Of a stretch of 48,769 nt of DNA, positions 26,451 to 46,265 are shown in pieces. A program made the position numbers and the translations under genes. The DNA is from a virus, in UHGV virus genome UHGV-0110022. One strand, 5' to 3'. Every line of letters starts with the position of its first letter. Within the stretch, counting starts at the first letter, position 1. Below the pieces are notes generated by a model. That model searched no databases. It was not told where the DNA came from and saw nothing but the letters and a program-made list of their open reading frames with translations.

Positions 26451-26478
26451 CCAGGATTCCCCTCACAGGTATTGCTGG

Positions 26479-26506: not shown

Positions 26507-26541
26507 TAATGCACATTTAGAAAAATGTTAATAGGCGAAAA

Positions 26542-27072: not shown

Positions 27073-27092
27073 TTAATAAAATTCATTACAAG

Positions 27093-27123
27093 GCCACCTT
27101 CTAATAGGTGGCTTTTTTATTTT
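27093..27123 (+). terminator. rho-independent terminator
   Basis: GCCACCT-tctaat-AGGTGGC followed by TTTTTTATTTT. Confidence 0.7.
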
Positions 27124-27133
27124 CGGAGTGTAT

Positions 27134-28462
27134 ATGACGTGGAAAGACAGGCTTCAGGATGCGTCATTTCGAGGTGTGCCGTTTAAGGTTGAAGAAGAAA
27201 GTGCGGGAACCGGTCGCCGTGTGGAAACACATGAATACCCGAACCGCGACAAGCCCTATACCGAAGATCTGGGAAAAGTCACTTTCCGCCCGTCCATCAC
27301 AGCTTATGTGGTGGGAGATGACTGCTTTGACCAGCGCGATCGCCTGATTGAAGCGCTGAATAAACCAGGTCCCGGCACGCTTGTCCACCCGACATATGGT
27401 GAGCTGAAAGTCTGTGTTGACGGGGAAGTTCGGGTCAGCACATCGAAAAGTGAAGGGCGTATTGTCCGCTTTGACCTGAAGTTTGTCGAAGCAGGAGAAC
27501 TCTCTTACCCCACATCAGGTGCGGCGACGGCGCAGACGCTGATGTCATCCTGTTCTGCACTGGATGACTGCATCAGTGACAGCTTCAGCGGTTTCAGTAT
27601 CGATGGTGTGGCGGATTTCGTGCAGAACGACGTTATCGGTAATGCCAGCATAATGCTGGGGTATGTTTCTGATGCGATGAAAGTGGTGGATTCTGCCGTA
27701 TCGGATGCCGCCAGGCTGTTGCAGGGGGATATCTCGGTACTTCTGCCGCCGCCATCGTCAGGCAAAAATTTCGTTGAGCAGGTGCAGAAAATGTGGCGTA
27801 CCGGGAAACGCCTTTATGGTAACGCCAGCGACCTGGTCACCATGATCAAAACGCTTTCTGGTGTCAGCCTCGGCAGCGATTTGCAACCGCGCGGCGTCTG
27901 GAAAACGGACAGTAAAACCACCGCCACAGCGACGCAGCAGCGTAACATGGTTGCCAGCACCCTTCGTACGACTGCAATCAGCGAAGCGGCGTATGCCGTT
28001 ACCCGATTGCCTGCGCCAACAACTTCTGCGGTGATGCAGAATGCCGCAGTGGGGCAGTCAACAACACCCGCGCAGAGCTCCGGCTGGCCTGCCGTCACGC
28101 ATCCGGTGCTGAACAATGCACCGGCGGTGAAAAACACGGTTGACCTGCCAACGTGGGAAGAACTGACCGACATTCGCGACACACTGAATACGGCAATTGA
28201 TAAGGAGTTGTCCCGTACAACTAGTGATGCGCTGTTTCTGGCTCTGCGCCGGGTGAAAGCAGATCTGAATGCGGATATCAACACGCGCCTTGAACAGTCT
28301 GCTCGGATCATTCAGCGCACGCCGGATGAGGTTTTACCCGCGCTGGTGCTGGCGGCGACCTGGTTTGATAACGCGGCGCGTGACGCGGACATTATCCGGC
28401 GTAATGCCATTACGCATCCCGGCTTTGTGCCGGTGATCCCTCTGAAGGTGCCAGTGCAATGA
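27134..28462 (+). CDS. DNA circulation protein (Mu gpN-like)
   Basis: N-terminal motif MTWKDRLQDASFRGVPFKVEEE; GGAG RBS. Confidence 0.8.
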   Translation: MTWKDRLQDASFRGVPFKVEEESAGTGRRVETHEYPNRDKPYTEDLGKVTFRPSITAYVVGDDCFDQRDRLIEALNKPGPGTLVHPTYGELKVCVDGEVRVSTSKSEGRIVRFDLKFVEAGELSYPTSGAATAQTLMSSCSALDDCISDSFSGFSIDGVADFVQNDVIGNASIMLGYVSDAMKVVDSAVSDAARLLQGDISVLLPPPSSGKNFVEQVQKMWRTGKRLYGNASDLVTMIKTLSGVSLGSDLQPRGVWKTDSKTTATATQQRNMVASTLRTTAISEAAYAVTRLPAPTTSAVMQNAAVGQSTTPAQSSGWPAVTHPVLNNAPAVKNTVDLPTWEELTDIRDTLNTAIDKELSRTTSDALFLALRRVKADLNADINTRLEQSARIIQRTPDEVLPALVLAATWFDNAARDADIIRRNAITHPGFVPVIPLKVPVQ

Positions 28463-29538
28463 ACGACAATGTCACGCTACGGGTAAATGGCCGGGAGTGG
28501 AATGGCTGGACATCGGTGCGCATCGGTGCCGGTATTGAACGGCTGGCGCGGGATTTCAGCGTGGAGATCACCCGCCAGTGGCCGGGAGATGAGGGTATCA
28601 CCACGCTTCAGCCGCGCATTAAAAATGGTTCAAAAGTGGAAGTGCTGATTGGTGATGAGCTGGTGATCACCGGCTGGGTGGAGGCGACCCCCGTTCGTTA
28701 CGATGCCCGTTCGGTCAGCACCGGTATTGCCGGACGTAGTCTGACTGCTGACCTGATTGACTGTGCAGCCGAACCGACACAGTTTAACGGACGATCGCTG
28801 GTACAGATTGCGCAGGCGCTTGCTGCGCCTTTCGGCATTGAGGTGGTGAACAGCGATGCGCCGTCGGGTGTTATTCCGGATGTCCAGCCTGATCACGGTG
28901 AAACGGTGATCGAGGTGATCAACAAAATACTCGGTCAGCAGCAGGCGCTGGCTTATGACGACCCGCACGGCAGGCTGGTGATTGGTGGTATTGGCTCAAC
29001 GCGGGCACATACCGCGCTGGTACTTGGGGAAAACATCCTTTCCTGTGATACGGAGAAGAGTATCCGGGAGCGGTTTTCAGTTTACCAGGTGGCGGGGCAG
29101 CGTGCCGGAAACGACGATGATTTCGGTGAGGCCACCACCACCGCGCTGCGGGCCCGCACAGAGGATGCATTTATTGCCCGTTACCGTCCGATGTATATCA
29201 GGCAGACAGGGCAGGCTACGGGGGCAGGCTGTATTGCGCGTGCTGACTTTGAAGCCCGACAACGGGCGGCGCGGACGGATGAAACCACCTATGTGGTGCA
29301 GGGCTGGCGACAGGGTAACGGTACGCTGTGGCAGCCCAACCAGCGGGTGATTGTCTTCGATCCGGTCTGTGGTTTCGACAATACCGAACTGCTTGTCTCG
29401 GAAGTCACGTTTACTCAGGACCAGAATGGCACCCTGACGGAAATCCGTGTCGGCCCACCTGATGCTTATCTGCCTGAACCCGAAGCCCCCGGCGCGCGGA
29501 AAAAGAAAAAAGCCAGAGTACAGGAGGACCCGTTCTGA
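28459..29538 (+). CDS. baseplate hub protein (Mu gpP-like)
   Basis: Position and size in Mu-like baseplate cluster. Confidence 0.65.
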   Translation: MNDNVTLRVNGREWNGWTSVRIGAGIERLARDFSVEITRQWPGDEGITTLQPRIKNGSKVEVLIGDELVITGWVEATPVRYDARSVSTGIAGRSLTADLIDCAAEPTQFNGRSLVQIAQALAAPFGIEVVNSDAPSGVIPDVQPDHGETVIEVINKILGQQQALAYDDPHGRLVIGGIGSTRAHTALVLGENILSCDTEKSIRERFSVYQVAGQRAGNDDDFGEATTTALRARTEDAFIARYRPMYIRQTGQATGAGCIARADFEARQRAARTDETTYVVQGWRQGNGTLWQPNQRVIVFDPVCGFDNTELLVSEVTFTQDQNGTLTEIRVGPPDAYLPEPEAPGARKKKKARVQEDPF

Positions 29539-30086
29539 TGAAGGCGATTGAAACCATACAGCGACAACTCCTCGGCCTGATTGGGCGGGCGGTGGTGAAA
29601 AGCATCAGTGCCGCCACGAAATGTCAGACCGTGGATGTGTCCCTGATTGCCGGTGAACCCAAAGCCGGGGTTGAACATCTTGAACCCTACGGTTTTACCG
29701 CAAGGGCAAACAGCGGTGCGGAAGCGGTGGTGTTGTTTCCGGATGGTGACCGTTCTCATGCGGTGGTTGTTACGGTGTCGGACCGGCGCTACCGCCTGAA
29801 AGGGCTGCAGACGGGTGAGGTGGCTGTCTATGACGATCAGGGGCAGTCCGTGACGCTGACCCGGGCGGGGATCGTGGTGGACGGTGCAGGTAAAACGATC
29901 ACGTTTCGCAATGCGCCTAAGGCTCGTTTTGAAATGGACCTGGAAGTGACCGGACAGGTGAAAGACCTGTGCGACTCCAGCGGCACCACCATGTCAGCGA
30001 TGCGGCTTGCCTATAACGGGCATCGTCACAGAGAGAACGGTCAGGGCAGTAACACCGACAAACCTGATAAAGCGATGGAGGCATGA
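29538..30086 (+). CDS. baseplate assembly protein V (spike)
   Basis: gpV-like 182-aa protein; ATGA overlap. Confidence 0.75.
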   Translation: MKAIETIQRQLLGLIGRAVVKSISAATKCQTVDVSLIAGEPKAGVEHLEPYGFTARANSGAEAVVLFPDGDRSHAVVVTVSDRRYRLKGLQTGEVAVYDDQGQSVTLTRAGIVVDGAGKTITFRNAPKARFEMDLEVTGQVKDLCDSSGTTMSAMRLAYNGHRHRENGQGSNTDKPDKAMEA

Positions 30087-30511
30087 TGGAACTGTGGCTG
30101 ACGGTGAACGGTAAACGCACCTGCGCCAGCGCACCGATGGATCCGCTGACCCGTGCCGTGGTGATTTCCCTGTTCACCTGGCGGCGGGCTGAACCTGATG
30201 ACAATGCCGACGTCCCGATGGGATGGTGGGGGGATACCTGGCCTGCGGTACAGAATGACCGTTACGGCTCCCGACTGTGGCTGCTTCAGCGCAGCAAACT
30301 GACCAATCAGCTGGTGCAGACGGTAAGGGGGTATATCCGCGAATGCCTGCAATGGATGATTGATGACGGCGTGGTGTCCCGTATTGATCTGGATATCCGC
30401 CGCACCGGGATTAATGAACTGGGTAACAGTATCACTCTCTGGCGTCGTGACGGACCGGTAATGATTTCTTTTGATGATCTGTGGAGTGCGATAACGCATG
30501 GCGGACAGTGA
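30083..30511 (+). CDS. GP46-family baseplate protein
   Basis: Position between V and J-like genes. Confidence 0.6.
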   Translation: MMELWLTVNGKRTCASAPMDPLTRAVVISLFTWRRAEPDDNADVPMGWWGDTWPAVQNDRYGSRLWLLQRSKLTNQLVQTVRGYIRECLQWMIDDGVVSRIDLDIRRTGINELGNSITLWRRDGPVMISFDDLWSAITHGGQ

Positions 30512-31556
30512 ATTTCAGCGCCCGACGCTGGCAGAAAATATCAGTATGCTCCGTAACGATTTATTCGCCAGGCTGGACGTCAGCGACACGCTCCGGCGCA
30601 TGGATGAAGACGTGCGGGCAAAGGTGTATGCGGCGGCGCTGCATACGGTTTACGGTTACATCGATTATCTGGCAATGAACATGCTGCCTGACCTGTGCGA
30701 TGAGTCCTGGCTGGCGCGACATGCTGCGATGAAACGGTGTCCGCGCAAGGGAGCCACGGCTGCCAGTGGGTATATGCGCTGGGAAGGTGTCAGCGATGGC
30801 CTGAAGGTGACCGCCGGGAGTGTTATTCAGCGCGATGACCTGGTGCAGTACACGACAACTGACGATGCAACCAGCTCCGGTGGTGTCCTGCGCGTGCCGA
30901 TCGCCTGCTCAAGTGCAGGTGCGGTCGGTAACGCTGACGACGGTACGGCATTAATCCTGGTCACGCCGGTGAATGGTCTGCCGTCTTCCGGTGTGGCTGA
31001 CACCCTGACAGGCGGATTTGATACTGAAGAGCTGGAAACGTGGCGCGCCCGCGTCATTGAGCGGTATTACTGGACGCCGCAGGGCGGGGCTGACGGGGAC
31101 TATGTTGTCTGGGCTAAAGAAGTGCCCGGCATTACCCGCGCATGGACATACCGTCACTGGATGGGAACGGGAACTGTCGGTGTGATGATTGCCAGCAGTG
31201 ACCTGATTAATCCCATTCCGGAAGAATCAACGGAAACGGCGGCAAGACAACATATCGAGCCACTGGCCCCGGTGGCAGGCTCTGATTTGTATGTGTTCAG
31301 GCCGGTGGCACATACGGTGGATTTTCATATCCGTGTGACGCCGGACACACCGGAAATACGGGCTGCCATCACCGCGGAGTTGCGTTCGTTCCTGCTGCGT
31401 GATGGTTATCCGCAGGGAGAACTGAAGGTATCGCGTATCAGTGAGGCGATTTCCGGTGCGAACGGGGAATACAGCCATCAGTTGCTTGCACCGGCAGACA
31501 ATATCTCCATTGCAAAAAATGAACTGGCGGTACTGGGGACGATTTCATGGACGTGA
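30498..31556 (+). CDS. baseplate J-like protein
   Basis: 352 aa at the expected position. Confidence 0.8.
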
Positions 31557-32131
31557 CAAACGATGATTACATCCGTCTGTTGTCGGCACTGTTGCCCCTC
31601 GGTCCGGCGTGGTCAGCCAGCGATCCGGCGATTGCCGGTGCGGCACCGTCATTAACCCGCGTTCATCAGCGTGCGGATGCCCTGATGCGGGAGCTGGATC
31701 CGCGCACCACCACTGAACTGATAAACCGCTGGGAGCGTCTGTGCGGTCTGCCGGATGAATGTATTCCCGCAGGGACACAGACCCTTCGCCAGCGTCAGCA
31801 ACGGCTGGATGCGAAGGTTAACCTGGCGGGCGGCATCAACGAGGATTTTTACCTTGCACAGCTTGCTGCCCTGGGCAGACCAGATGCCACCATCACGCGA
31901 TACGACAAAAGCACGTTCACCTGCTCATCGGCCTGTACTGACGCGGTGAATGCGCCGGAATGGCGGTATTACTGGCAGGTCAACATGCCAGCCGCCACCA
32001 ACACCACCTGGATGACATGTGGCGATCCCTGTGATTCCGCACTGCGTATCTGGGGGGACACCATTGTCGAGTGCGTGCTTAACAAACTCTGTCCGTCTCA
32101 TACCTACGTAATTTTTAAATATCCGGAGTAA
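31547..32131 (+). CDS. tail protein YmfQ-like (DUF2313, gp48 family)
   Basis: 194 aa, same size and position as e14 YmfQ upstream of the tail fibre. Confidence 0.6.
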
Positions 32132-32134
32132 TCC

Positions 32135-32884
32135 ATGCATCGCATAGACACGAAAACCGCGCAGAAGGATAAGTTCGGCGCGGGTAAGAACGGTTTTACC
32201 CGTGGTAACCCCCAGACCGGCACGCCTGCCACCGATCTGGATGATGACTACTTTGACATGTTGCAGGAAGAGCTTTGCAGCGTGGTGGAGGCATCCGGTG
32301 CCAGTCTGGAGAAGGGGCGGCACGACCAGTTGCTTACCGCGCTTCGTGCGCTGCTGTTAAGCCGCAAGAATCCGTTTGGCGATATCAAATCGGATGGCTC
32401 AGTGAAAACGGCTCTCGAAAACCTTGGTTTGGGAGAAGGCTCTGCATTACCTGTTGGTGTGCCTGTTCCATGGCCTTCAGCCACACCGCCAACAGGCTGG
32501 CTGAAATGCAACGGTGCGGCATTTTCTGCTGAAGAATACCCGGAACTGGCAAAGGCTTACCCGACAAATAAATTGCCTGATTTACGTGGTGAGTTCATTC
32601 GTGGCTGGGATGACGGAAGAGGAATAGATACTAACCGTAGCTTGCTTTCATCACAGGGCGATGCCATTCGAAATATAATTGGTGCATTAGTGGATGTCAG
32701 GTTTAATAACTACCCTTCTGATTCTGGCGTTTTTACAACCAGCGTCATCGGAGATGCTTCATCTGATTCAATTAAAGGTGGTTATGCAAAGCGAGTAACA
32801 TTCGATGCTTCCAGAGTTGTTCCAACTGCAAACGAAAACCGACCTCGTAACATTTCCTTTAATTATATCGTGAGGGCTGCCTGA
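32135..32884 (+). CDS. tail fibre protein (constant N-terminus plus currently expressed variable C-terminus)
   Basis: Conserved tail-fibre N-terminus ([40 protein letters not shown]); contains inversion crossover site at 32412-32437. Confidence 0.8.
32412..32437. repeat. Pin recombination site (left inverted repeat, gix/hix-like)
   Basis: CTCGAAAACCTTGGTTTGGGAGAA; inverted match to 34237-34262 (shared TTGGTTTGGGAGAAG). Confidence 0.65.
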
Positions 32885-33486
32885 TGAATAAAGTTGTCTT
32901 AAATAACGAACTCATTGCCATAAAAGCGGGAGACATAACCGTTTATAATTATGATGGTGAAACGCGGGAATATATTTCCACATCAACAGAATATCTTGCC
33001 ATTGGTGTCGGCATTCCGGCATGTTCCTGTTTAGATGCCCCTAGCCCATACAAAACTGGTTATGCAATTTGCCGTTCTGAAGATTTTAACTCGTGGATAT
33101 ATGTGCCAGACCATCGTGGTGAAATTGTCTATAGCACTGAAACAGGAGAATCAAAAGAAATCACAGCTCCGGGTGATTATCCTGAAAATACAACCACTAT
33201 CGTCCCATTAACGCCATACGATAAATGGGATGGTGAGAAATGGGTGACAGATACTGAGGCACAATATGGTGCCGCAGTAAAAGCGGCAGAAGTACAGCGA
33301 CAGTCACTAATTGATACTGCAATGGCTTCCATTAGTCTGATTCAACTGAAATTGCAGGCCGGGAGGAAGCTGACGCAGACAGAAACCACCCGACTAAACG
33401 CTGTGCTGGATTACATTGACGCGGTGACGGCAACGGATACCAGCACCGCGCCGGATGTCATCTGGCCTGAACTGCCGGAGGAGTAG
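32884..33486 (+). CDS. tail fibre assembly protein (currently expressed orientation)
   Basis: C-terminal Tfa motif LDYIDAVTATDTSTAPDVIWPELP. Confidence 0.8.
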   Translation: MNKVVLNNELIAIKAGDITVYNYDGETREYISTSTEYLAIGVGIPACSCLDAPSPYKTGYAICRSEDFNSWIYVPDHRGEIVYSTETGESKEITAPGDYPENTTTIVPLTPYDKWDGEKWVTDTEAQYGAAVKAAEVQRQSLIDTAMASISLIQLKLQAGRKLTQTETTRLNAVLDYIDAVTATDTSTAPDVIWPELPEE

Positions 33487-33889
33487 GCCATTCAATATCT
33501 GGCGCACCAGAAGTATCGACCAGTTCCAGTGCGTCCAGATAATCCAGCCACAAATTATATTGCGCCAGTTCCTCACCTTTCAGACGACCAATCGCCGCTT
33601 TACCAGGCCATTGTTTACTGTTCATGTATTCGTTGGCCTGATTAACTAATCGCTGTTTATTTGATTCAGCGATTGAGATTAATTCTTCGCTGGTAAGTGG
33701 TGGCGCATCCTGCCATGCTGGAAAACCATTTTTATCTGAACCAAGTATTTTACCATCAGGCCATGCAACTCCTGCGAACTCAGAATAAATAGTAAAGTTT
33801 ATTTTCGTAGCGTTCTCAGGAATGGTTTGGCTATCTGGTGAAATATAAAATCCCGAATCAGAGGGATTAAAATAATATGTCTTTTCCAT
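33458..33889 (-). CDS. alternative tail fibre assembly protein
   Basis: C-terminal Tfa motif LDYLDALELVDTSGAPDIEWPTPP; convergent with the plus-strand tfa. Confidence 0.75.
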   Translation of the reverse strand: MEKTYYFNPSDSGFYISPDSQTIPENATKINFTIYSEFAGVAWPDGKILGSDKNGFPAWQDAPPLTSEELISIAESNKQRLVNQANEYMNSKQWPGKAAIGRLKGEELAQYNLWLDYLDALELVDTSGAPDIEWPTPPAVQAR

Positions 33890-33891
33890 AG

Positions 33892-34262
33892 TTAATACCC
33901 CACTGCCATCCAGTAAATTGAATTTGTTGTAGCAGAAGTGTAAGTAAATCTGATTTTAGTTCTGTTGGTACTTCCAATATCAAAGCCCACAGAACGGGCA
34001 GAAGGATCATTAGTTGAAATAAGAGCGTTTACCGAACGACAAGCAGCAGGGAAAGCTACAGGTAATGTTATATCAACTGTTCCAACACTTCCTCCGGTTG
34101 GTGAGACAGAAAAACTCCCCCATTGAATAATCATCCCCCCAGGTAATTTCTGGTATCCATTGGCGGTCAATGAGTTACCAAAGTTGTTCATATCCGGTAC
34201 CTGATTTTCTCCTGTCCCCACATTCCGTTTTGCCGCTTCTCCCAAACCAACGTTTATGAAAA
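33892..34262 (-). CDS. promoterless alternative tail-fibre C-terminal segment
   Basis: Open frame runs through the right recombination site (..INVGLGEAAK..) matching ..[10 protein letters not shown].. at the left site, so inversion would fuse it to the constant N-terminus. Confidence 0.55.
34237..34262. repeat. Pin recombination site (right inverted repeat)
   Basis: TTCTCCCAAACCAACGTTTATGAAAA; internal dyad symmetry typical of Hin/Gin-family sites. Confidence 0.65.
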
Positions 34263-34316
34263 TGCAGAAATAACGAGCAAATGGCATCATTCCTGCTTTT
34301 GTCAGAGGGATCCACT

Positions 34317-34871
34317 ATGCTTATTGGCTATGTACGCGTATCAACAAATGACCAGAACACCGATCTACAACGTAATGCGTTGAACTGTGCAGGATGCGAG
34401 CTGATTTTTGAAGACAAGATAAGCGGCACAAAGTCCGAAAGACCAGGATTGAAAAAACTGCTAAGGACATTATCGGCAGGTGACACACTGGTTGTCTGGA
34501 AGCTGGATCGGCTGGGGCGTAGTATGCGGCATCTGGTCATTCTGGTTGAGGAGTTGCGCGAACGTGGCGTTAATTTTCGCAGCCTGACGGATGCTATTGA
34601 TACCAGCACACCGATGGGGCGTTTTTTCTTTCATGTGATGGGTGCCCTGGCTGAAATGGAACGAGAACTGATTGTTGAACGAACAAAAGCTGGACTGGAA
34701 GCTGCTCGCGCACAGGGACGAATTGGGGGACGTCGTCCCAAACTTACACCAGAACAATGGGCGCAGGCCGGACGATTAATTGCAGCAGGAATTCCTCGCC
34801 AGAAGGTGGCGATCATCTATGATGTTGGTGTATCGACACTGTATAAGAAGTTTCCGGTCGGAGATAAATGA
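34317..34871 (+). CDS. pin: serine DNA invertase (Pin/Gin/Hin family)
   Basis: N-terminal MLIGYVRVSTNDQNTDLQ with catalytic Ser, C-terminal HTH; 184 aa. Confidence 0.85.
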   Translation: MLIGYVRVSTNDQNTDLQRNALNCAGCELIFEDKISGTKSERPGLKKLLRTLSAGDTLVVWKLDRLGRSMRHLVILVEELRERGVNFRSLTDAIDTSTPMGRFFFHVMGALAEMERELIVERTKAGLEAARAQGRIGGRRPKLTPEQWAQAGRLIAAGIPRQKVAIIYDVGVSTLYKKFPVGDK

Positions 34872-35197
34872 AACCGCAGGCTCGTCGTATGCAAGAAAGT
34901 GCTGCGGCTGGCTGGCCAGCTTCTGATAGTGCGAATATTGAATGATTTCTATCTGTTATAGATTTTACCGTATTTCGGCATGAATGAAACTGAATATCCT
35001 CCCACCGATTCTTCATGACTTTACGCCACTGTCTCTAGGGCTGCTATGTGCCAAAAGCAGACTGACTAACTCAATAGTGGGTCAGTCAAAATGAGGGATA
35101 CGTCGACTCCTGTTACTGTTATCAATTATATTGTAGAATCAGAAAGCAGGCGTCAAAGACCTTAAATATTATTCGATACCTTAGGGATGTAAGTGAT

Positions 35198-35680
35198 ATG
35201 CTCGACAATATGAATGAATATGAGGAATTCTTGTTCCATAGGATTGATGATTCGGATTTATTGACAGGATTTGTTATTGGCCATTTAGTGATTGAACATC
35301 TTCTTGAAGAGATAATTCTAGGCTATGACATCAAGCTCAGAAAACATTTTCTTACATTGAGTCATAGTAAAAAAATAAACTTCATAAATTCTTTGGAACT
35401 AATACCTGATAACGTAGCAAGTTGTTTGCAAAGTATTAACAAAATAAGAAATAAATTTGCTCATCAATTAGGTTACAAGCCGAATAAAGGTGATTTATTG
35501 AACCTAATTGAGCAATGTATAGATAGTTTTAACGATATGACCGACGGACTTGAACAACTTCATGGTGCTCTAAAACAATGTGATGATCTACTTGAAACAC
35601 AAGAAAAAGACGGAGTTGGGCTAGCTGATCTCTTTATACAAGTGGTCTACGATCTAGAGGGGTACGCCAAAAAATATTGA
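35198..35680 (+). CDS. HEPN-motif protein (160 aa), candidate abortive-infection/RNase-type cargo
   Basis: R-x4-H motif in IRNKFAHQ; AT-rich; lies between invertase and att fragment. Confidence 0.45.
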   Translation: MLDNMNEYEEFLFHRIDDSDLLTGFVIGHLVIEHLLEEIILGYDIKLRKHFLTLSHSKKINFINSLELIPDNVASCLQSINKIRNKFAHQLGYKPNKGDLLNLIEQCIDSFNDMTDGLEQLHGALKQCDDLLETQEKDGVGLADLFIQVVYDLEGYAKKY

Positions 35681-35893
35681 GTCATTATTCTTGGGGTAGC
35701 CCTCCAATTCGGTGACGCATATTTTTGTTAGTTATTGGTATTAACAGGTAACTGCCGCTTCTCGCTCATAGCGAAACTTAAACCTAGTAAACTCGTCAGC
35801 TCCGTGCCAGGATCGGAAGTTGCAAAGTTTCGGCATTTTATGCCAGTGAGTTCCTAATTTCTAATCAACCTCTTCATTATAGGAGTTAGTAAA

Positions 35894-36103
35894 TTGAAAA
35901 TCGATTGGCATAGCTCATTACTGACCAGTAACAATAGCATGGATAAAAACTATAAAAATACACAAAACGTTCGTCTTTTCATGATTAAGGAATGTGGTGA
36001 AGATTTTCGATTCGATCGTGAATTTATGATGTGGATACGTAATGATGATCCGAAAACTTTGGGTGATGTTATCAATGAGTGGAAACGCAGACATTCGTTT
36101 TAA
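35894..36103 (+). CDS. hypothetical protein (69 aa, TTG start)
   Basis: AGGAG RBS 8 nt before TTG; AT-rich. Confidence 0.35.
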   Translation: MKIDWHSSLLTSNNSMDKNYKNTQNVRLFMIKECGEDFRFDREFMMWIRNDDPKTLGDVINEWKRRHSF

Positions 36104-36382
36104 TAAGCCAAGCCCGCTTTTCGCTCATAACAGACATTCACTACAGTTATGGTAGAAGGTATGCATGCTGGGTGGGGAAAGTATGAAGGAAAAGAAGACT
36201 GCTGCGCCGTTTGTCGTCACATTTATCTTCATTGGCTATGCAAGTCGTAATACAAGGTGGGACAAAACTGAGACACATAAGGCCTCGCAATGACTTGCAA
36301 GGCTTTACATGTTTTGATGTGGTGGGACGTGTGAGCGCAGTGTTGATGGGGTAATGCTTTGAATTAGAAGCGGATTCTTATA

Positions 36383-36428
36383 ATTCGTAATGCGAAGGTC
36401 GTAGGTTCGACTCCTATTATCGGCACCA
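36383..36428 (+). tRNA. thrW: tRNA-Thr 3' fragment (anticodon loop to CCA end); prophage att core / attR-like
   Basis: ATTCGTAATGCGAAGGTCGTAGGTTCGACTCCTATTATCGGCACCA matches the 3' part of tRNA-Thr(CGU) as recalled; 5' acceptor strand GCCGATA absent upstream. Confidence 0.65.
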
Positions 36429-37008
36429 TCAACAGAAAATCCCGTAAAAACAGCATTCTTTAGCATGTTTATCTAACGGTTTGTAACTTCTGTTCTAACG
36501 TCTGTTAGCACTGGTAAACGCCTTTGCGTTGTATCGGCTCAAGTATTGTACAACGTACTGGCGGGTAGTTACCAGGCTCAAGCCCGAACAGCATTAGAAA
36601 TTATGCCATCCCTTGAAGCTAAAAGAGTTGCCGGACTCTCTAAACACATCACTTGAACCCTTAGCGATACGTTCCGCGCTTCGTGCGGCGCTCAATGATG
36701 CTACACGTCGAGATGACGTTGCAGAAAATAAACAGGCGTAATGTTGGGAAGACTAACCGGATCGGGAAAGAATCCGGCTCTGCCACGGTTTCGATCACCG
36801 GAGTATAACGATCACCTGATAAGAGAACGTGCTAAGGCTTTATCCTCCCTGCGAAGGGATTACACCCTGCGGAAGCGCTACGCGCCGCCTTTTCTTATGT
36901 GCCCAACACGGCACGTAATGGTCATCCATTATCTGCACCATTGTAACTTTCGTTGTACTGCCTCTCTGATGTACGTTGAGCGCTGGCAGATTCAGCGGAG
37001 GGGATATC

Positions 37009-37167
37009 ATGTCAAAAGCTAACCAAAAAGCAGCCACGAAGCGCAACAACCGTAAGATTCACGCCCGTAAATTCCTGGCAACACCAGAGGGGAAAGCCTG
37101 GCTTGCTAAGAAGCAGGAAGAGCGAGAGGAAATCAAGTTGGCGCGAGCTGCAAACTTGATGTTTTGA
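37009..37167 (+). CDS. small basic protein (52 aa)
   Basis: GGAGGGG RBS 5 nt before ATG. Confidence 0.4.
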   Translation: MSKANQKAATKRNNRKIHARKFLATPEGKAWLAKKQEEREEIKLARAANLMF

Positions 37168-37178
37168 GATGGGGCTAA

Positions 37179-37979
37179 TCAGCCCCTATTGCCCCTATGC
37201 TTTTTTTCGAATCTTGTCACAACTCTATCCAACCATTTGGGTTCTTCTCTAAGATCTGAGTAGTAACAATTTTCTGGAACCGCGTTCCAGAAAGCAGTTA
37301 TTGCGTTAGCAAAATCTACAAATTGATCTTCTGAGACATGTAAATCGTCATGGTTAGGGACAATCTGCGTGCCTCTAACATCGGTGGGGTTTGGGTAATA
37401 CTCAGGATGATCAACTGATAGTGTTTGATGTGCAGGGCCGTCTCCATGCTTGTATACGTTTACCACCAAGTTACAGGCTTTTATCCTTTCTCCGTATTCG
37501 GTTCCATTGATTGTGAGGCCAATCCATTCGAGCAAATCAATTAGCTGATGGAAAGTTAAATTCCAGATCATGGGGGTAATCAATTCTCTTTCACACCAAT
37601 TACTTAGCTCTTTGATAGTATGTTCTCTTAGTTTTTTATCAAACTGATGATACATACCTGCTGTCAACGCCAACAATACGGTATTTTGCATCTCCAGAAG
37701 CGACCATACATAATAAATTCCCTCATGATAGGCTTGCTCGTAGGCCGCCATTGGGTCATCGTTATCTTGATCAAAATACTCAGCAGTAGTCTCCAAAAAC
37801 TGTTGTTCTCTCTTCTCTGCTTCTTGTTCTAAATCACCAAACTGAGAGAGAAGCCGCCGCCTTGCCTCAGAAACGTAAAATTCATGGGGTTCAAGAAAGT
37901 ATGGAAGATCGGCTCTGGCTAACCAGAAGGTGACAAAATTTTCAGTAGACATACATTTCCTCAATGAAGCGATAGACAT
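37179..37979 (-). CDS. hypothetical protein (266 aa)
   Basis: Long ORF; no recognisable motif; start uncertain. Confidence 0.45.
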   Translation of the reverse strand: MSIASLRKCMSTENFVTFWLARADLPYFLEPHEFYVSEARRRLLSQFGDLEQEAEKREQQFLETTAEYFDQDNDDPMAAYEQAYHEGIYYVWSLLEMQNTVLLALTAGMYHQFDKKLREHTIKELSNWCERELITPMIWNLTFHQLIDLLEWIGLTINGTEYGERIKACNLVVNVYKHGDGPAHQTLSVDHPEYYPNPTDVRGTQIVPNHDDLHVSEDQFVDFANAITAFWNAVPENCYYSDLREEPKWLDRVVTRFEKKHRGNRG

Positions 37980-38115
37980 TTTGAGGTTATGTTATCTTCG
38001 GTGAGGGTTAAAATCCTCAACTGATTCAATGGAATTGTCATTTGGTTTGAAATGCGGTAAAAGAATAAAATTCGTAATGTACGCTTTGCAGAAACAATCT
38101 GAAAATGAGGTGGTT

Positions 38116-38343
38116 ATGAGTGAACGTTACGAATTTTTACCCAATTGCTTCCTGAAAGTCTCTATCTCATCGGGTTACTTTACTGCCATCCTTGATGGTT
38201 CGCTTCCTCCTGATACCCCTGGTTCTGTTCATGCTGATAATGCCACGCAAGTCATAATCGTACTCGATTCCTACTTCCAATTGACTGACTTACAGCATCA
38301 AGGAATTGCTAATTATCTTTGCTCTCAAGGGATGGAACTTTGA
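38116..38343 (+). CDS. hypothetical protein (75 aa)
   Basis: GAGG RBS before ATG 38116. Confidence 0.3.
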   Translation: MSERYEFLPNCFLKVSISSGYFTAILDGSLPPDTPGSVHADNATQVIIVLDSYFQLTDLQHQGIANYLCSQGMEL

Positions 38344-38798
38344 TAGATTGGTTGCTTAATGTTGATAATCTGACCATGCTTGCCGCATGGGCTGGGTTTG
38401 CACTATCCATTTTCCAGCTATTAAAATCCAGAACAGATCTACGCCTTTTCTTAGGTTGCGATCAGTATGAAGACAGAATTTATGTTTCCAACAAAAGCGC
38501 CCATGATGTGACGATAAGTTCGGCGGGCATAGTAACCGCCAGCGGACGCCTTAGCGATTGTTCTAACGAACATTGTGATGAATACATGATCAGCCCCATG
38601 TTGCCACGCCGATTAAAAGCCCGTGATGAAATGATCTTAGAAGTACCATTCATCAATAAGGCTCACCATAATAAGGTGCATCATCGCGGAGGGGTGTATG
38701 TTACTACATCTGATGGGAAGCTGTTCAGTGATGTTAGTTGGCTGCGTCGTCGCTGGTGGTGGATATTGTCTCTGATCCTACGTGATTCCAAGCAGTGA
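38319..38798 (+). CDS. hypothetical protein, possibly membrane (start uncertain)
   Basis: ORF with hydrophobic N-terminal segment; no clear RBS. Confidence 0.3.
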   Translation: MLSRDGTLIDWLLNVDNLTMLAAWAGFALSIFQLLKSRTDLRLFLGCDQYEDRIYVSNKSAHDVTISSAGIVTASGRLSDCSNEHCDEYMISPMLPRRLKARDEMILEVPFINKAHHNKVHHRGGVYVTTSDGKLFSDVSWLRRRWWWILSLILRDSKQ

Positions 38799-38856
38799 TT
38801 ACTTATACACCGCACCAGACCACGCTGGTTATCTGCTTGTCTTCCTTCTTCAATCG

Positions 38857-39054
38857 TTACTCCTCTTCAAAGGTCATTGTGTAGCGGCATTGCTGCGACG
38901 GCCTGAGCGTCACTGTCTCCGTAAAGTTGGCGTTGGAATAAACGCAAATCTTCGCGTTGTCTGTCTCCTGTTCGTCACTGAGAATCAGGGTTATCTGTCC
39001 GGCATTCGCCAGGACTGGCATTACTGTCAGCGTCAGCACAAGCAAGCGTTTCAT
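38857..39054 (-). CDS. small secreted protein (65 aa with signal peptide)
   Basis: AGGAG RBS 7 nt before ATG; signal peptide MKRLLVLTLTVMPVLANA; directly downstream of the recombinase. Confidence 0.45.
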   Translation of the reverse strand: MKRLLVLTLTVMPVLANAGQITLILSDEQETDNAKICVYSNANFTETVTLRPSQQCRYTMTFEEE

Positions 39055-39064
39055 GCGTATCTCC

Positions 39065-39697
39065 TTATAAGTCCATCTCATTGATCACACGGCTAACGGC
39101 TTGCTTGTCTAAATCCAGATAGCGCCTGGTGTCAGTGATGTTGCTGTGATTAAGCACGGTCATAGCTAAAGCGATGTTGTTTGCTGAACGCTTGTAGATG
39201 GCATTCCCGCCAGCTTTGCGGAAGCTGTGAGCTGATACAGTGCCATGAATACCGATAGCTTTAGCGGCCTCTGCGATCTGCTTGCTCACTTCTTCGCGTC
39301 GTACAGGCGCTTGCTTGTTCATTGATCGGTTACGCTGGCTTCTGAACACATGCACATCATGCGGATACTCAGCACGGCGACGAGCAATCATCTGCACCAC
39401 TGGAGCAGGGAGAGTGAGGGCTTTACGCTTCCCTGTCTTCTGTTCTTCTATGTCAATCTCACCGTTGATCACTTCGTCGAAGCGTAACGCTACGGCATCC
39501 CCCACACGCAGTACAGCGGCTTGCATCATTAACGTAACGTCAGCTATCAGGCTCTTGTTATGAGCGTTTAGCCACTCCCTGATCGCTTTGGCTTGCTGTT
39601 CGTCTAACACTACTGCTCTGTTCAATTTACCCTCCCATAAAGACACACATCTAAACTCAACGAAACAAATAATATGATCAATTTCAGTAAGTTGCAA
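39065..39697 (-). CDS. small tyrosine recombinase (catalytic domain only, FimB/FimE-size)
   Basis: Catalytic residues in LRVGDAVALRFDEV (Arg), HSFRKAGG (His-x-x-Arg), TDTRRYL (Tyr); possible TTG start at 39625 after GGGAGGG RBS, giving 186 aa. Confidence 0.55.
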   Translation of the reverse strand: MQLTEIDHIICFVEFRCVSLWEGKLNRAVVLDEQQAKAIREWLNAHNKSLIADVTLMMQAAVLRVGDAVALRFDEVINGEIDIEEQKTGKRKALTLPAPVVQMIARRRAEYPHDVHVFRSQRNRSMNKQAPVRREEVSKQIAEAAKAIGIHGTVSAHSFRKAGGNAIYKRSANNIALAMTVLNHSNITDTRRYLDLDKQAVSRVINEMDL

Positions 39698-40384
39698 TAT
39701 AAATGATCAAAAATCGAACTGTCTTGTGTGTGGTAAATGGCGCGATTGCGTCCAGTGCTTAACGACCTCCAGGGCCGCCTCCAGATCGAAAATTTCTTCT
39801 CCTCTAAATATCTTGAACAAAATCATGATGTTGGCATTTATAAACATGTGTTTGAACATTGCCAAATCCTCAACTCTGCACGAAGAACAGCGGCAACAGC
39901 GGAACATCACACTACCAATGCTTGTGTGTGGTTATTGTCTATCTCATTGATTTAAATCTGATAAATGTAAGGTTGTTAGGCGAGGGCGGGGCTAACCTGC
40001 CTGTATGCACAGATTATGCGGAGTTTATGCACTTGAAACTGAGTGTGTAATGAAATGATTAGAATGCTAATCAATTGGTGGATTTTGGCATGAAAAAGAA
40101 ACATCGTTTCATTTTAGAAAACTCGTTCAGCACATTGCACCTGTCATGAAACTCCTCATTGTGGACAATGATCGCTGTGAGCCGCATGGCGCAAGGCTTT
40201 ACGCAAAGTGAGTGATGGTTACTATCTTGCTGACTATGGCAACTTTACCCATGTAACAACGGCAATCTTTACCTGTCATTTAAGATAGGCTTAGCTATGA
40301 TTATCGTGTTGTTTTGATAGGAATAACCTCTCGTTACTCTTAGTGTTGTTGCATGGATGAATCAGAGTTAGTTGGGGGCGTTAT

Positions 40385-40464
40385 ACATCAAAATGATGTA
40401 TAGATGCATGGGATACGCATCAAATTGATGTATGGATCGGCAAACTACACATCAAATTGATGTT
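40385..40464. repeat. three phased palindromic repeats (putative regulator binding sites)
   Basis: CATCAAA(A/T)TGATG at 40386, 40418, 40450 with exact 32-bp spacing. Confidence 0.5.
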
Positions 40465-41014
40465 CTATACAAAGAGATTCTAAAAGCGATCTCTAAAAGA
40501 GAGCTTTTAGAAGATCTTGTTAAAGATTCGCTTTGCTGGCGCGTATCGCCTGGCAAGTGACCTGATTCGCCTTTGGGGGCTACTCGGTCAGCCGCTCACG
40601 ACGCAGCGTAGCGCATCTGTCTGTGATTGTGCCAGGGCTTCGCCCTCGTGAAACGAGGCACAGAAGCTATGCGCCGTGTGCGCAATGTCTTTCAGGATAA
40701 CTTCTGCCTGTCTTCCATGCTCCGCATTCATCCATGCAAAGTTAGCCCACGGCTAAGGATTCACTGGTCGCTGATGGCTCCAGTTCATCCAGCCTCAATC
40801 CAATACCATCACCTACTATCCTGATAACTAACGTTATCCCTCAGTAGTTGTGCTATTGGTTTCGGGAGTAAGTGCCAGAGGGCGGCGGTAACGCAAACGG
40901 AACGCCCCAGACGCGCTGAGAGCGAATTTGAGAGGATAGGGAGGGGATTGCAACTCTCAGGCTTTCAAACCTGTTAGAAAGCGATAGACCGCGTTTTATG
41001 ATGACATGAATGAG

Positions 41015-41094
41015 TTGATCACAACGTGGAAATGCGCTATAATTTGAAAGGGATTGAAATAAGTGTTGACATTTAAATCATTTCATGTTAAAGT
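41015..41094 (+). promoter_or_regulatory. tandem sigma70-like promoters
   Basis: TTGATC-17 nt-TATAAT (41015-41043) and TTGACA-17 nt-TAAAGT (41066-41094). Confidence 0.45.
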
Positions 41095-41189
41095 AAATGA
41101 TGTAGGGTGATGAAAGCATTCATCCCGTCCTCATCTCAGGCATCCAGCCTAACGCAAACAATCCAACTTACACCGCACTATCAGGCAAC

Positions 41190-41438
41190 GTGATTAACGT
41201 TCTCCCTGGATGGTGTTTCTGTGTTTCTAACGCAAGGAGAACCAAAATTAAGTATTTTAATCCAGAACTTGTCTTCGAGGCTTTAAAGGCCGGAAGCCAG
41301 ACGCGAAATGCAATAAACAGCCAGCGAGCAGCCGCACAACGGCAAGGATATTTCGAACACGCTGAAAGATTGCGTAAAGGAATCGAACTTTACGATCAAT
41401 GGAAAGCTGAACAGGCTGAAACCACCACCAACGAATAA
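41190..41438 (+). CDS. hypothetical protein (start uncertain)
   Basis: ORF with internal AAGGAG at 41233 but no in-frame ATG after it. Confidence 0.3.
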   Translation: MINVLPGWCFCVSNARRTKIKYFNPELVFEALKAGSQTRNAINSQRAAAQRQGYFEHAERLRKGIELYDQWKAEQAETTTNE

Positions 41439-41456
41439 ACCAGAAGGAGAAACCAA

Positions 41457-41633
41457 ATGAGCGAAATCCAGAAGAAGAAACCAGCCGGAACATTCGTAAA
41501 ACTGCCGGATGAAGTGTTTAGTACTTTGTTCAAAGAGGCGCGAGCGAGAGGCGTAACAGTGCAGGAGATGTTAATTGACGCTGCAACCACACTTTCCACA
41601 TCAATTAAGAACGGAGAACGTTCTACCAAATAA
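41457..41633 (+). CDS. small DNA-binding-like protein (58 aa, possible ribbon-helix-helix), not in the ORF track
   Basis: AGAAGGAG RBS 7 nt before ATG; translation MSEIQKKKPAGTFVKLPDEVFSTLFKEARARGVTVQEMLIDAATTL... Confidence 0.4.
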   Translation: MSEIQKKKPAGTFVKLPDEVFSTLFKEARARGVTVQEMLIDAATTLSTSIKNGERSTK

Positions 41634-41647
41634 GGATACACCCTAAC

Positions 41648-42388
41648 ATGACTGACATTATAAACAGTAAGGCTTTTAGTTTCACCAACACCGAAGACGC
41701 ATTTAACGAATGCACCAGGATCACCAATCTTAAAACAGGCGTAACAGAGTCCCTGTCTCCTGCTGATAAGCAGTTTTACGTCAGAATGCGCCATCGTTAT
41801 TATCGCTTTGCGATAGAGTTGGGCGGTACTTATTACGATGACATTGATCAACTTGGTGCAAGTATTGGTGTCAGCTCGGCTACGGCAACACGTATTGTTG
41901 CAAAGTTGAAGAAAATCGGACTGATCGCCAGTAATAAGCCAAAGCGCTCTAACCAATGGACTATAACGCCACTCACGCCGCAAAACTTCACCTTTGAACG
42001 TGATCGTAATGCGATGGAACGTGATTCCGCGCCGGAATGGGTAGATTGTCTGAAACATCCCGTGTTTGGCAAAGCTAAAGAAGACGTAGCGCCAGAGGAA
42101 GAAAAACAGCAGTCAGTGCCAGAAGAGGCCAAAGCAGATCCGAAGCCGGAGAAGCCAAAGAAAATGCCTACGAAGAAACCCGCCTCCATTCCAGCTAAAG
42201 ATATTAAGATAGAGCCAGTTAATTTAAACTTTCTTGAGGGTTATCGGGATGAATGGGAGAATCCTGAAAAGAATCTACCAGTTTCACAACATCCGAAAAT
42301 CAGATGGCTACTTATTAACGGATACCTGGACACAGAGAAGAATCCAAAACTTAAACCAATCTACGAGGAAATAGAACATTTATGCTGA
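41648..42388 (+). CDS. HTH-containing protein (246 aa), possible replication/regulatory protein
   Basis: Winged-helix-like segment IGVSSATATRIVAKLKKIGLI; Lys/Pro/Glu-rich linker. Confidence 0.45.
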   Translation: MTDIINSKAFSFTNTEDAFNECTRITNLKTGVTESLSPADKQFYVRMRHRYYRFAIELGGTYYDDIDQLGASIGVSSATATRIVAKLKKIGLIASNKPKRSNQWTITPLTPQNFTFERDRNAMERDSAPEWVDCLKHPVFGKAKEDVAPEEEKQQSVPEEAKADPKPEKPKKMPTKKPASIPAKDIKIEPVNLNFLEGYRDEWENPEKNLPVSQHPKIRWLLINGYLDTEKNPKLKPIYEEIEHLC

Positions 42389-42843
42389 AAACGGTTATAC
42401 CCAAACAATACAACGAACGTGATCTTAACATCATCCATCTTGCCAGTTTATTAAATCCAGAAGTTGAAAGAGGTGTTGCATTCGAACAAGCGCAAGAACT
42501 TGTAGATGTTTACGCTGAGCGAGGTGAATCAAGTTACGCTAATGCTCTTGTTACGCTATTCAATGCAGCGATGAAGCCACCGAAAGAGATAGAATGTAAA
42601 ATGACATCCCCACATCTTCACGATAAGAATCTGTCTCCTTCGGAACGTCTGGTATTAATGCACCTCGAATCACTGCCATCATTAACAAATGTGAAACAGG
42701 AGTCAATAGCGATAGTGTTGGGGATAAGTGTGGCAACTGTATCCAGTGCGATTCGCAAGCTCCGCCGCAATGATTATCTAACTACTACGTTAATCAAACC
42801 TGGTCGCGGTAAAGGATGCGACATTACACTTACGACTAAATAA
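42382..42843 (+). CDS. winged-helix transcriptional regulator-like protein (153 aa)
   Basis: HTH-like segment IAIVLGISVATVSSAIRKLRRNDYL. Confidence 0.4.
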   Translation: MLKTVIPKQYNERDLNIIHLASLLNPEVERGVAFEQAQELVDVYAERGESSYANALVTLFNAAMKPPKEIECKMTSPHLHDKNLSPSERLVLMHLESLPSLTNVKQESIAIVLGISVATVSSAIRKLRRNDYLTTTLIKPGRGKGCDITLTTK

Positions 42844-42947
42844 CAACAATCGGGAAACTTTTATGATTACTGCTTTATGGTGGTTCACCATATTCTATGG
42901 CGTTTACGTTATAACCAGACAAGGAGTTTCCCCTCTACGAGGAATGA

Positions 42948-43331
42948 ATGGGACGAAAAGAACGAAGTAACCTTGTTAGAATCGAAAAAGCCACACGCAT
43001 CAGCAAACGTAAATACACCTCTTCTCTACAAGACCTCGCACGAGAGTCTATTCCTGGTGAGATGGTGACAACTATTAAAGAATATCCCGCAGTAGTACCA
43101 AATGGATTAGAGTTTGAACTATTGCAGGATGTTCTATCGTCAACGGATAACGTTTATTACAAACCACGACGCAGACGCGAATATATTATAGATAGTAGCC
43201 ATCTCAAGAAATGGCAAATAGCAGGATTTGAACATTACGCCGATTATATTGGGTATTGTCAAACCTGGGGGCTATCCCAGCACACACAAGAGTTTGATAT
43301 TCTCTTTGACGACAAGGAAAACAATGAATAA
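42948..43331 (+). CDS. hypothetical protein (start uncertain)
   Basis: ORF only. Confidence 0.25.
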   Translation: MGRKERSNLVRIEKATRISKRKYTSSLQDLARESIPGEMVTTIKEYPAVVPNGLEFELLQDVLSSTDNVYYKPRRRREYIIDSSHLKKWQIAGFEHYADYIGYCQTWGLSQHTQEFDILFDDKENNE

Positions 43332-43662
43332 TAAAACTATGGACACAGTGAACACCCTAATTAACTCTTTCCACGACAACTGGCATTTACCAACCTTACA
43401 GCTTGTTAATGCAGCGTGGCGTGAGAGAACGCCCTCCGCGCTTCTGGAAGCGGTGCAATACACTGAACAGGCAATCACTGCCCTTGAACATCTGCAAACG
43501 TCTGTAGCTCGTTTGGTGCAGCGTGACGGCAGTTCGATCACACCAGAAGAAGCGTGGCGTGTAGCTAATGACCTTGAGGAGCTTGCTTGCTCTCTGCAAT
43601 ACATCACCGTTGAACTCGGAGAGCTTTCCATCCAGATCGCGGAAGAATGCGCCATAACATAA
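43324..43662 (+). CDS. hypothetical protein (112 aa)
   Basis: AAGGAAA RBS before ATG 43324. Confidence 0.35.
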   Translation: MNNKTMDTVNTLINSFHDNWHLPTLQLVNAAWRERTPSALLEAVQYTEQAITALEHLQTSVARLVQRDGSSITPEEAWRVANDLEELACSLQYITVELGELSIQIAEECAIT

Positions 43663-43677
43663 AAGTTACTAAATGTC

Positions 43678-43706
43678 TTGACATTATGTGCTATATGTGT
43701 CATAAT
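43678..43706 (+). promoter_or_regulatory. near-consensus sigma70 promoter
   Basis: TTGACA(43678-43683)-17 nt-CATAAT(43701-43706). Confidence 0.55.
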
Positions 43707-44236
43707 GAGTTATAGGGTAAGTATTCGAATCACTTCACCCTCGTATGTCAATACGCACTCCTTGAGAATGCCGTTCCCATAGCGGCATTCTCTCCCTCTG
43801 AATGCTATTTCTGAAAGTGTTGGTTCTTTGTCTTGTTTGTTCCGAAGGAATGCGCGGGATGTAATATCTCGTTGTGTTGGTATTGCATCGCAATCACCGC
43901 GCATCTCCGACTTTTTCAGAAAGGGCATTCGCTCTTTGCTCATTCATTCCGTTAGGATGAATGTAGTCAGACTGAATAAACGCCGTCAGCGGTAGTTACG
44001 TTCAGGCTGGCAATCTCTTATTACTATTCCAGTGGTGATATTGAGATTCCATTCCCACTTCTCGCCATGACAGAAGGGCTTCTGTTTTGAAGTGGGAGCA
44101 ATGACGGGCGATCCTACTTCTGTTATTCGTAACAGTTGCGCCCTTCATTTTTTCAAGAAGCCATTCTTTAACATCATAATCCTCCGAAACGAAAATGATT
44201 TTAACAGAATGCTTTCTAACAAGGGCATATTCTCCA

Positions 44237-44258
44237 GGGGCTTAATCGCCCCTTTTTA
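44237..44258 (+). terminator. rho-independent terminator at the end of a structured leader
   Basis: GGGGC-ttaatc-GCCCC followed by TTTTT. Confidence 0.55.
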
Positions 44259-44328
44259 ACAATCTGCATGTAACACTTCCGTTATTAATGGAAGGATAAA
44301 CGCAGTTATAACGCGAAGGAACAACACA

Positions 44329-44544
44329 ATGTTCTTAATAAACAATCGCGACCGAATCCTAAAATACAAATCCGAAGTGATTCAAGTTAATCCTGAGTTA
44401 ATAGCTAAAGTGGCTGAAATGGCAGGATGTACCGTTGAAGAAATAGAAAAAGCTGTAGACCAGTATTTCCCTTCTGAGGACACACCTCAACTTAGTATGC
44501 AGGAACGGATCGCAATCAAATCCAAGGAAATCAAACAACAATGA
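44329..44544 (+). CDS. hypothetical protein (71 aa)
   Basis: AAGGAA RBS; first gene of the capsid-like cluster. Confidence 0.4.
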   Translation: MFLINNRDRILKYKSEVIQVNPELIAKVAEMAGCTVEEIEKAVDQYFPSEDTPQLSMQERIAIKSKEIKQQ

Positions 44545-44900
44545 TTGTAGACCTAACCGAACTTTTCCCAATTCGTAAGAGTTTCACTGACGTATTGAGC
44601 TACGCCACTGATTCTTTTGCAGTCGTAGAAGGCCGTGTTTTCGACCTGCCAGCAGATATTGAATGCGGCGATGTTATCGGCGCTGATGGCGCTCTATACA
44701 CCTCCGGCGATGATGCCTTTGTGGTGGTAAGTGATTTCGTGAGTGCTGGCGACGGTAAAACCGTGAATGTCCTACGTGCGCCTAATGTTGGTAGCTTCGT
44801 AGCACTGAAAGCCGACAACCTGCACGCAGCTAATCACGCCGCAGCTATCACCACGCTCGAATCCAAAGGGTTCGTATGCCGTCCATTCTTCACCTCTTAA
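44541..44900 (+). CDS. head decoration protein-like (D-like, putative)
   Basis: 119-aa Gly/Ala/Val-rich protein immediately upstream of an E-like capsid gene; ATGA overlap. Confidence 0.4.
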   Translation: MIVDLTELFPIRKSFTDVLSYATDSFAVVEGRVFDLPADIECGDVIGADGALYTSGDDAFVVVSDFVSAGDGKTVNVLRAPNVGSFVALKADNLHAANHAAAITTLESKGFVCRPFFTS

Positions 44901-44916
44901 TCAAGGAAGATAAATA

Positions 44917-45948: not shown

Positions 45949-46067
45949 TGAGCAAGCGGGAGCCTGACCCGCTGGAAATAATCAGGCTATTGAATATGGC
46001 GTGTGAACGTTGGGAACATCTCCCCAGTGTTCCCGCCCTTTTTTATTTCCAGAATGAGGAAAGATAA

Positions 46068-46265
46068 ATGCAAGTGATTGTAAAAAGCGCGGGGCTTCAC
46101 CTCGCCGTAAATGCTGAAACAGCAGAAGAGTTATTAAATCTGGCGGGAGTGTGTCGTGTGCTTGAAATAGATCACGGTCATCTACGTCAGTTATTACATC
46201 GTGGGCGTAGTGTATCAGATGCACTTAATTATCTGGTGAGTAAAAAAGGCGGTGGCGATGCTTGA
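46068..46265 (+). CDS. hypothetical protein (65 aa)
   Basis: GAGGAAA RBS. Confidence 0.35.
   Translation: MQVIVKSAGLHLAVNAETAEELLNLAGVCRVLEIDHGHLRQLLHRGRSVSDALNYLVSKKGGGDA

Follow-up and report, generated by a model that had tools for sequence, protein, structure and literature searches.

A displaced thrW fragment at the junction between an SfII-family prophage and a second integrative element

Introduction

What does a piece of a tRNA gene with no 5′ half mark inside a viral genome, and what lies on either side of it? We addressed this question in the virus genome UHGV-0110022, a stretch of 48,769 nucleotides (here called the window, with positions counted 5′ to 3′ from its first letter). 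The first-pass annotation, made from the letters, had taken a partial tRNA-Thr at positions 36383-36428 for the boundary of a prophage, and had suggested tandem occupancy of a tRNA integration site.

Both ideas have precedents. A 46-base core has been printed for phage SfI and is common to SfII, SfV, SfX and P22; upon integration at thrW, a 261-bp attP region is divided between both prophage ends (PMC3636060). Experimentally, SfI integrates at the attL of a resident SfX, giving a tandem flanked by proA and the host gene downstream (PMC3306764). More generally, islands in tRNA genes are bounded by a regenerated tDNA and a displaced fragment, with crossover sub-sites at either the anticodon loop or the T loop/junction; among 2,168 genomes, tandem arrays with two or more islands numbered 125, and those with three or more numbered 4 (PMC4383910).

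Results

The fragment is half of a threonine tRNA gene

The sequence at window 36383-36428 on the plus strand, ATTCGTAATGCGAAGGTCGTAGGTTCGACTCCTATTATCGGCACCA, is an exact 46/46 copy, in tRNA orientation, of positions 31-76 of thrW. As reference we used the 76-nt tRNA-Thr(CGT) called by ARAGORN next to proA in Escherichia coli AR_0128 (L001 5971-6046), in which the anticodon CGT occupies positions 34-36. The fragment thus opens on the final base of the anticodon stem's 5′ strand and covers the anticodon loop and everything to the CCA end. Aligned to thrW, the 30 nt upstream of 36383 (…gcggattcttata) bear no resemblance to a tRNA 5′ half. The initial description of a 46-nt match from anticodon loop to CCA was therefore exact, and its assignment to tRNA-Thr was correct.

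ARAGORN called 0 tRNA genes over the whole window and an Rfam scan of the window returned no tRNA at gathering score. At a permissive threshold the Rfam tRNA model scored only 14.2 bits, below its cutoff of 29, as expected of half a tRNA. The other permissive matches (snoZ119, Plastid-ycf2 and Acido-Lenti-1) are sub-threshold and were dismissed as chance noise. Lacking the complete cloverleaf of a functional tRNA (acceptor 5′ strand, D arm and 5′ anticodon-stem strand), the fragment is a non-functional half-tRNA, a recombination scar.

Within the window the 46-mer is present in a single copy, even with up to three mismatches allowed (shuffles expect 0.00), and a search of the window for other thrW 12-mers found none. 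The matching attL and the distal repeat of the right-hand element, described below, must therefore lie outside the window. A short-repeat scan of the att region yielded just 9-10-nt pairs, consistent with chance. A count across 5,426 complete E. coli genomes gives 7,582 copies of the 46-mer, spread over 5,017 of them with a maximum of four per genome, which implies roughly 2,500 displaced copies besides thrW itself.

The core and its left arm are those of an SfII-type attachment site

Two features make up the phage side of the junction:

36383..36428, plus strand: att core, the displaced 3′ part of thrW, recognised by identity to thrW, to the published core and to the SfII attP core
36104..36382, plus strand: P arm (phage side) of the attR of the left-hand prophage, here called prophage A, conserved in thrW prophages and matching SfII attP

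In the free SfII genome, gtrA and int are separated by 260 bp that contain a left arm, an identical 46-bp core and an int-side arm. The approximately 270 bp on the phage side of the fragment match the gtrA-side attP arm of SfII and of other thrW prophages; over the 122 nt nearest the core (36261-36382), 117/122 are identical to the SfII arm. The arm as a whole (about 36104-36382) is conserved at 97-99% identity in many E. coli thrW prophages with different cargo, among them CUPF06 and PEC414. The int-side arm of SfII attP, for its part, is identical at 295/300 positions to the DNA that follows the intact thrW in strain W137. The SfII attP is thus composed of attR arm, core and attL arm, which is the relation expected of site-specific integration.

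The boundary is sharp. In nine complete E. coli genomes, AR_0128 among them, a 100% match begins exactly at 36383, under an annotated intact tRNA-Thr, and the breakpoint relative to otherwise-occupied sites coincides with the core boundary (36382/36383). The proposal that the fragment defines the prophage boundary is borne out by these genomes and by the attP match. We are highly confident that it is the attR of an SfII-family prophage in thrW, lying at the junction with an earlier element there. Both the 46-nt att core and this class of attR have already been described, and the sequence itself is published.

These results also bear on whether the fragment could be a decayed duplicate of a tRNA gene, a pseudogene with no link to site-specific recombination, or could match thrW by chance. 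Fragments of tRNA genes are often mis-annotated, and the tRNA finders do not call this one. However, a 46/46 exact match has an expectation of 0 by chance, the breakpoint is sharp with no graded decay, and we count the identity to the attP of sequenced phages as a refutation; the probability we leave to this explanation is negligible.

One element of the earlier account needs rewording. It held that lambda-type integrases duplicate the 3′ part of the target tRNA. In fact attP brings its own copy of the tRNA 3′ part, and the integrase duplicates nothing.

Prophage A and its cargo

The DNA to the left of the core comprises the following:

1..36382, plus strand: prophage A, a temperate phage of the SfII/SfI/SfIV/SfV family (about 97% nucleotide identity), its left end lying beyond the window
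35198..36103, plus strand: cargo (moron) slot just upstream of attP, recognised from ORF families and from its position relative to relatives
35198-35680: 160-aa DUF4145-like ORF, just sub-threshold (22.8 bits against a cutoff of 23.1)
35894-36103: DUF6434 ORF of 69 aa, the last ORF of the prophage, ending 279 bp before the fragment

Prophage A combines lambdoid early genes with a Mu-like contractile tail. Over the structural genes, window 11500-36382 is about 97% identical to the Shigella flexneri phages SfII, SfI, SfIV and SfV, and the SfII-family match extends right up to 36382. Close relatives occur in many E. coli chromosomes; the thrW prophage of PEC414 covers 88% of prophage A. Across the window, the genes follow the order seen in intact thrW prophages; none of the retrieved loci showed colinearity along the window's full length.

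The placement of the fragment a few hundred base pairs past the last cargo gene agrees with the 279 bp measured here. The cargo slot holds gtrABC in the Shigella phages and a restriction-modification system in PEC414 and CUPF06. The cargo pair of prophage A was found in 17 contigs and was absent among the complete E. coli genomes searched. PADLOC gave no match for either ORF, which leaves a defence role for them unsupported.

Two further segments of prophage A vary among relatives. The tail-fibre segment (32135-34871) is invertible, and a serine invertase of the Gin/Pin type (34281-34871) controls it. Tail-fibre and assembly ORFs have one orientation in the window and in contig L007, and the opposite in L005 and L006, two contigs whose prophage end is otherwise the same. 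Contigs L008-L012 break within the tail-fibre region. A 417-aa ORF (10792-12045), flanked by the late antiterminator and the lysis genes, occupies a moron position and has a weak PADLOC match to PDC-S59 (E=2e-7); at this position relatives carry an ATP-binding protein, KwaAB or methyltransferases instead.

The left end of prophage A

The window starts inside the early-left operon. Its first 3,300 nt (1-3300) are 100% identical to strain W137, where the order continues directly with yfdT, an Xis-like gene, an integrase that shares 99% identity with SfII Int, and an intact thrW; thrW in W137 ends 1.66 kb to the left of the base that corresponds to window position 1. In the complete chromosome of PEC414 the order is proA, thrW, int, xis, a prophage of about 38 kb, the 46-mer and yagP'/paoD. 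From these relatives and from the attR sequence we strongly infer that an intact thrW and an SfII-type int would be found some 1.7 kb to the left of position 1. Since the phage family is mosaic and the attL end falls beyond the window, this end of prophage A is given as predicted. The first-pass annotation had likewise placed the intact tRNA and the integrase to the left of the window, in DNA that the window itself does not show; the relatives (W137, PEC414 and the contexts counted below) have them there.

The same mosaicism invites another account, in which the prophage is rearranged: the right end would be a thrW attR, the left end would lie off thrW, and the complete tRNA gene and the integrase would be missing or not adjacent, through recombination with a degraded prophage further right, inversion or replacement of the int module. 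The family is indeed highly mosaic. Identical early-left genes are joined elsewhere to lambda-type or other integrases (L017 for the leftmost complete gene of the window; L035, L038 and L041 for the replication gene), at sites that include ybhC, icd and more, and a second SfII-like remnant regularly follows the right-hand element in E. coli, where it would offer homology for rearrangement. Against this stand the 100% match of window 1-3300 to W137, where thrW lies close by, and a gene order colinear with intact thrW prophages across the window. The leftmost complete gene, moreover, has the int-thrW-proA arrangement in 9/10 distinct contexts, and the replication gene is at thrW in 6/10. We consider a rearranged prophage very improbable; prophage A is most probably an ordinary thrW prophage with its attL to the left.

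The DNA to the right is a second element

Immediately after the core the window enters different DNA, which we call element B:

36429..48769, plus strand: element B, a second phage-like integrative element at thrW, the first 12.3 of about 13.7 kb, recognised by identity to AR_0128
36410..36428, plus strand: B sub-core ACTCCTATTATCGGCACCA, 19 nt from T loop to CCA, the repeat on which the B integrase acts and one of the direct repeats bounding B in relatives
39065..39625, minus strand: small tyrosine recombinase of 186 aa, catalytic domain alone (Pfam PF00589, E=3.7e-16, full catalytic-domain profile)
41648-42388: replication-initiator-like protein of B
44917-45948: weak homologue of a lambda-E/HK97-type major head protein
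46258-48102: tape-measure-like protein of B, 614 aa

Window 36383-48769 (about 12.4 kb) aligns gaplessly, at 99.8% identity, with the DNA at and after the intact thrW in AR_0128. There the order, in window orientation, is proB, proA, intact thrW, B, a 407-aa integrase and the 19-nt repeat; beyond the repeat, an SfII-type int arm leads into int and a degraded SfII-like prophage, after which come a copy of the 46-mer that has lost one G (45 nt), then the native flank and, last, yagP'/paoD. Direct repeats of 19 nt bound B in AR_0128, L028, L029, L031 and L033, and B, counted from the thrW end through its distal repeat, is 13.7 kb long. In related loci its distal end carries the 407-aa tyrosine integrase, on the minus strand, and the 19-nt repeat; a second copy of the repeat is accordingly predicted at about 50113-50131, some 1.4 kb past the end of the window. 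The integrase shares 24% identity with SfII Int in the catalytic domain. Judged from these alignments, the DNA right of 36428 is a separate mobile element, neither prophage A nor host backbone.

Element B recurs in several settings. It stands alone at thrW with unrelated flanks in other hosts (L028 and L033) and is followed by an SfII-like remnant in L027, L029, L030 and L034. It also occurs behind a third island with a P4-type integrase in MS6192 and MS6193 (L002 and L031). In these two strains the island between thrW and B leaves a 49-nt thrW fragment (its integrase is a pseudogene in MS6192), and the locus is a natural array of three or more: island, B and SfII-like remnant. A variant of B was seen at a different site in L032.

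The gene content of B includes, besides the proteins listed above, an HTH_36 protein; no portal, terminase or tail genes were found in B, and most of its ORFs lack a family match. The 186-aa recombinase, which has a PHROG integrase match, is distinct from the integrase adjoining the B att site. B may be a satellite or mini-prophage.

Two stretches of B deserve mention in their own right. About 1.5 kb (39700-41190), flanked by the gene for the small recombinase on one side and the replication-like genes on the other, contain no ORF of at least 80 aa and no Rfam match at gathering score; this stretch could hold regulatory or origin sequences. In AR_0128 (L026, reverse complement, about 13766-13841) a second piece of thrW, TGCGAAGGTCGTAG, corresponding to tRNA positions 39-52, lies in the distal arm of B, 35 nt upstream of the 19-nt repeat, in a part of B past the right end of the window. 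The distal arm thereby resembles a tRNA 3′ half in which the five bases GTTCG have been swapped for 35 nt of unrelated sequence, and this arrangement could descend from an older att configuration.

Because the fragment includes the 19-nt core of B, and the arm of B begins directly after CCA, one might instead suppose that B made the fragment as its own attachment scar and that the left-hand prophage merely adjoins it. Where B has no left-hand element (AR_0128, L027-L030 and L033), however, the tRNA is complete; the B repeat is only 19 nt; and the truncation at tRNA position 31 corresponds to the SfII attP core boundary and comes with an SfII-type arm. An origin of the fragment from B is scarcely credible to us, and we attribute it to prophage A.

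The fragment as an internal junction of a tandem array

With an SfII-type arm on its left and DNA colinear with B on its right, the fragment is an internal junction of the array, at which the attR of prophage A is fused to the attL of B. The earlier suggestion of tandem occupancy is thereby upheld: the right-hand DNA is a 13.7-kb element that elsewhere directly follows an intact thrW and has its own integrase and 19-nt repeat.

The same cargo and arm also occur without B. In L006, L007, L010 and L011 the 46-mer is followed by 'ttaaaatcaaagagttacccc…' and yagP'/pao. The native flank sequence after the thrW locus is 'ttaaaatcaaagagttacc', and the native yagP'/pao flank also follows the displaced thrW fragment at the CP4-6 end in K-12. 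The junction of the window type was found in two metagenome contigs (L005 and L008), and the junction of cargo, fragment and B in no complete E. coli genome searched. Contig k119_75722 of ENA ERZ27235222 is an example with the window's junction. This combination is a matter of strain content rather than of kind.

Further right, a third, degraded SfII-like prophage is probable. A more elaborate proposal joins two claims, namely that the locus is a three-element thrW array (intact SfII-like prophage, B and degraded remnant) and that B is an undescribed kind of phage satellite, sitting next to SfII-like helpers in one tRNA gene and mobilised with or by them; taken together, we regard these as unlikely.

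Discussion

A mechanism consistent with these observations runs as follows. In its attP the free phage has a 46-bp stretch of thrW, from anticodon loop to CCA, and the phage tyrosine integrase recombines attP with thrW, with the crossover probably in the anticodon-loop region. With the phage copy a complete thrW is restored beside int at the left end (attL), and the former 3′ part of the tRNA gene is displaced by about 38 kb to the right end, where it persists as a half-tRNA. The fragment is the presumptive Int/Xis excision substrate for prophage A, and its last 19 nt likewise for B.

The order of arrival can be proposed in conditional terms. Because the SfII int arm follows the distal repeat of B in all five E. 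coli contexts, a degraded SfII-like prophage was probably the first occupant of thrW. B may have come next, entering the rebuilt thrW nearer its 3′ end than the SfII-like phages do, through the 19-bp identity from T loop to CCA, and rebuilding thrW again. Prophage A would have been last, recombining in the anticodon-loop region of the thrW rebuilt by B; as thrW had already been used and rebuilt by B, the SfII-like phage would have entered at the attL of B. The resulting order would be proA, thrW, prophage A, the 46-nt fragment and element B, with the fragment as a hybrid site that has the P arm of prophage A on its left and the arm of B on its right.

The closest known counterparts are the attR sites of SfI, SfII, SfIV, SfV and SfX. 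These share the identical 46-bp core, the attP arm by the cargo slot and the chromosomal site downstream of proA; the prophages belong to one family (about 97% identity over structural genes), and relatives whose left arm is identical to the window encode an integrase 99% identical to SfII Int. In contrast to the gtrABC cargo of the Shigella phages, the window carries the DUF4145-like and DUF6434 ORFs; it also has an E. coli-like backbone and a tail-fibre invertase module, and its core is followed by another mobile element rather than by host DNA. The SfI-SfX tandem lysogen (Sun et al. 2011, PMC3306764) shows the same succession of proA, thrW, newcomer, core and resident. Both partners there use the 46-bp core and related integrases, whereas the sub-core of the resident B is 19 bp long and its tyrosine integrase is unrelated.

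Other users of thrW are more distant. P22-like phages are listed as thrW integrators, and Salmonella phage P22 has the same 46-bp thrW core (PMC3636060); P22 itself is a podovirus with other structural genes. The cryptic prophage CP4-6 of K-12 similarly has a displaced thrW 3′ fragment at its distal end, followed by the yagP/pao flank, but this fragment, with three extra tRNA bases, is 49 nt long, CP4-6 itself has no relation to SfII, and a P4-type integrase (intF) adjoins the fragment at the distal end. With the tDNA arrays of the Islander survey (Hudson, Lau and Williams 2015, PMC4383910), which have a regenerated tDNA and a displaced fragment, and one fragment and one integrase per island, there is no difference in principle; the window holds the internal junction alone.

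What the fragment provides is a base-precise right boundary for the prophage, at 36382/36383. Such a boundary helps to delimit prophages and to avoid calling tRNA fragments as genes; its significance beyond annotation is small. The residual interest of the locus lies in the uncharacterised element B and in the probable three-element array, both of which extend beyond the window. Serial accumulation at tRNA genes is already established, by the SfI/SfX tandem experiment and the Islander survey. The locus illustrates this serial build-up at one tRNA gene, by integrases that cut different sub-sites.
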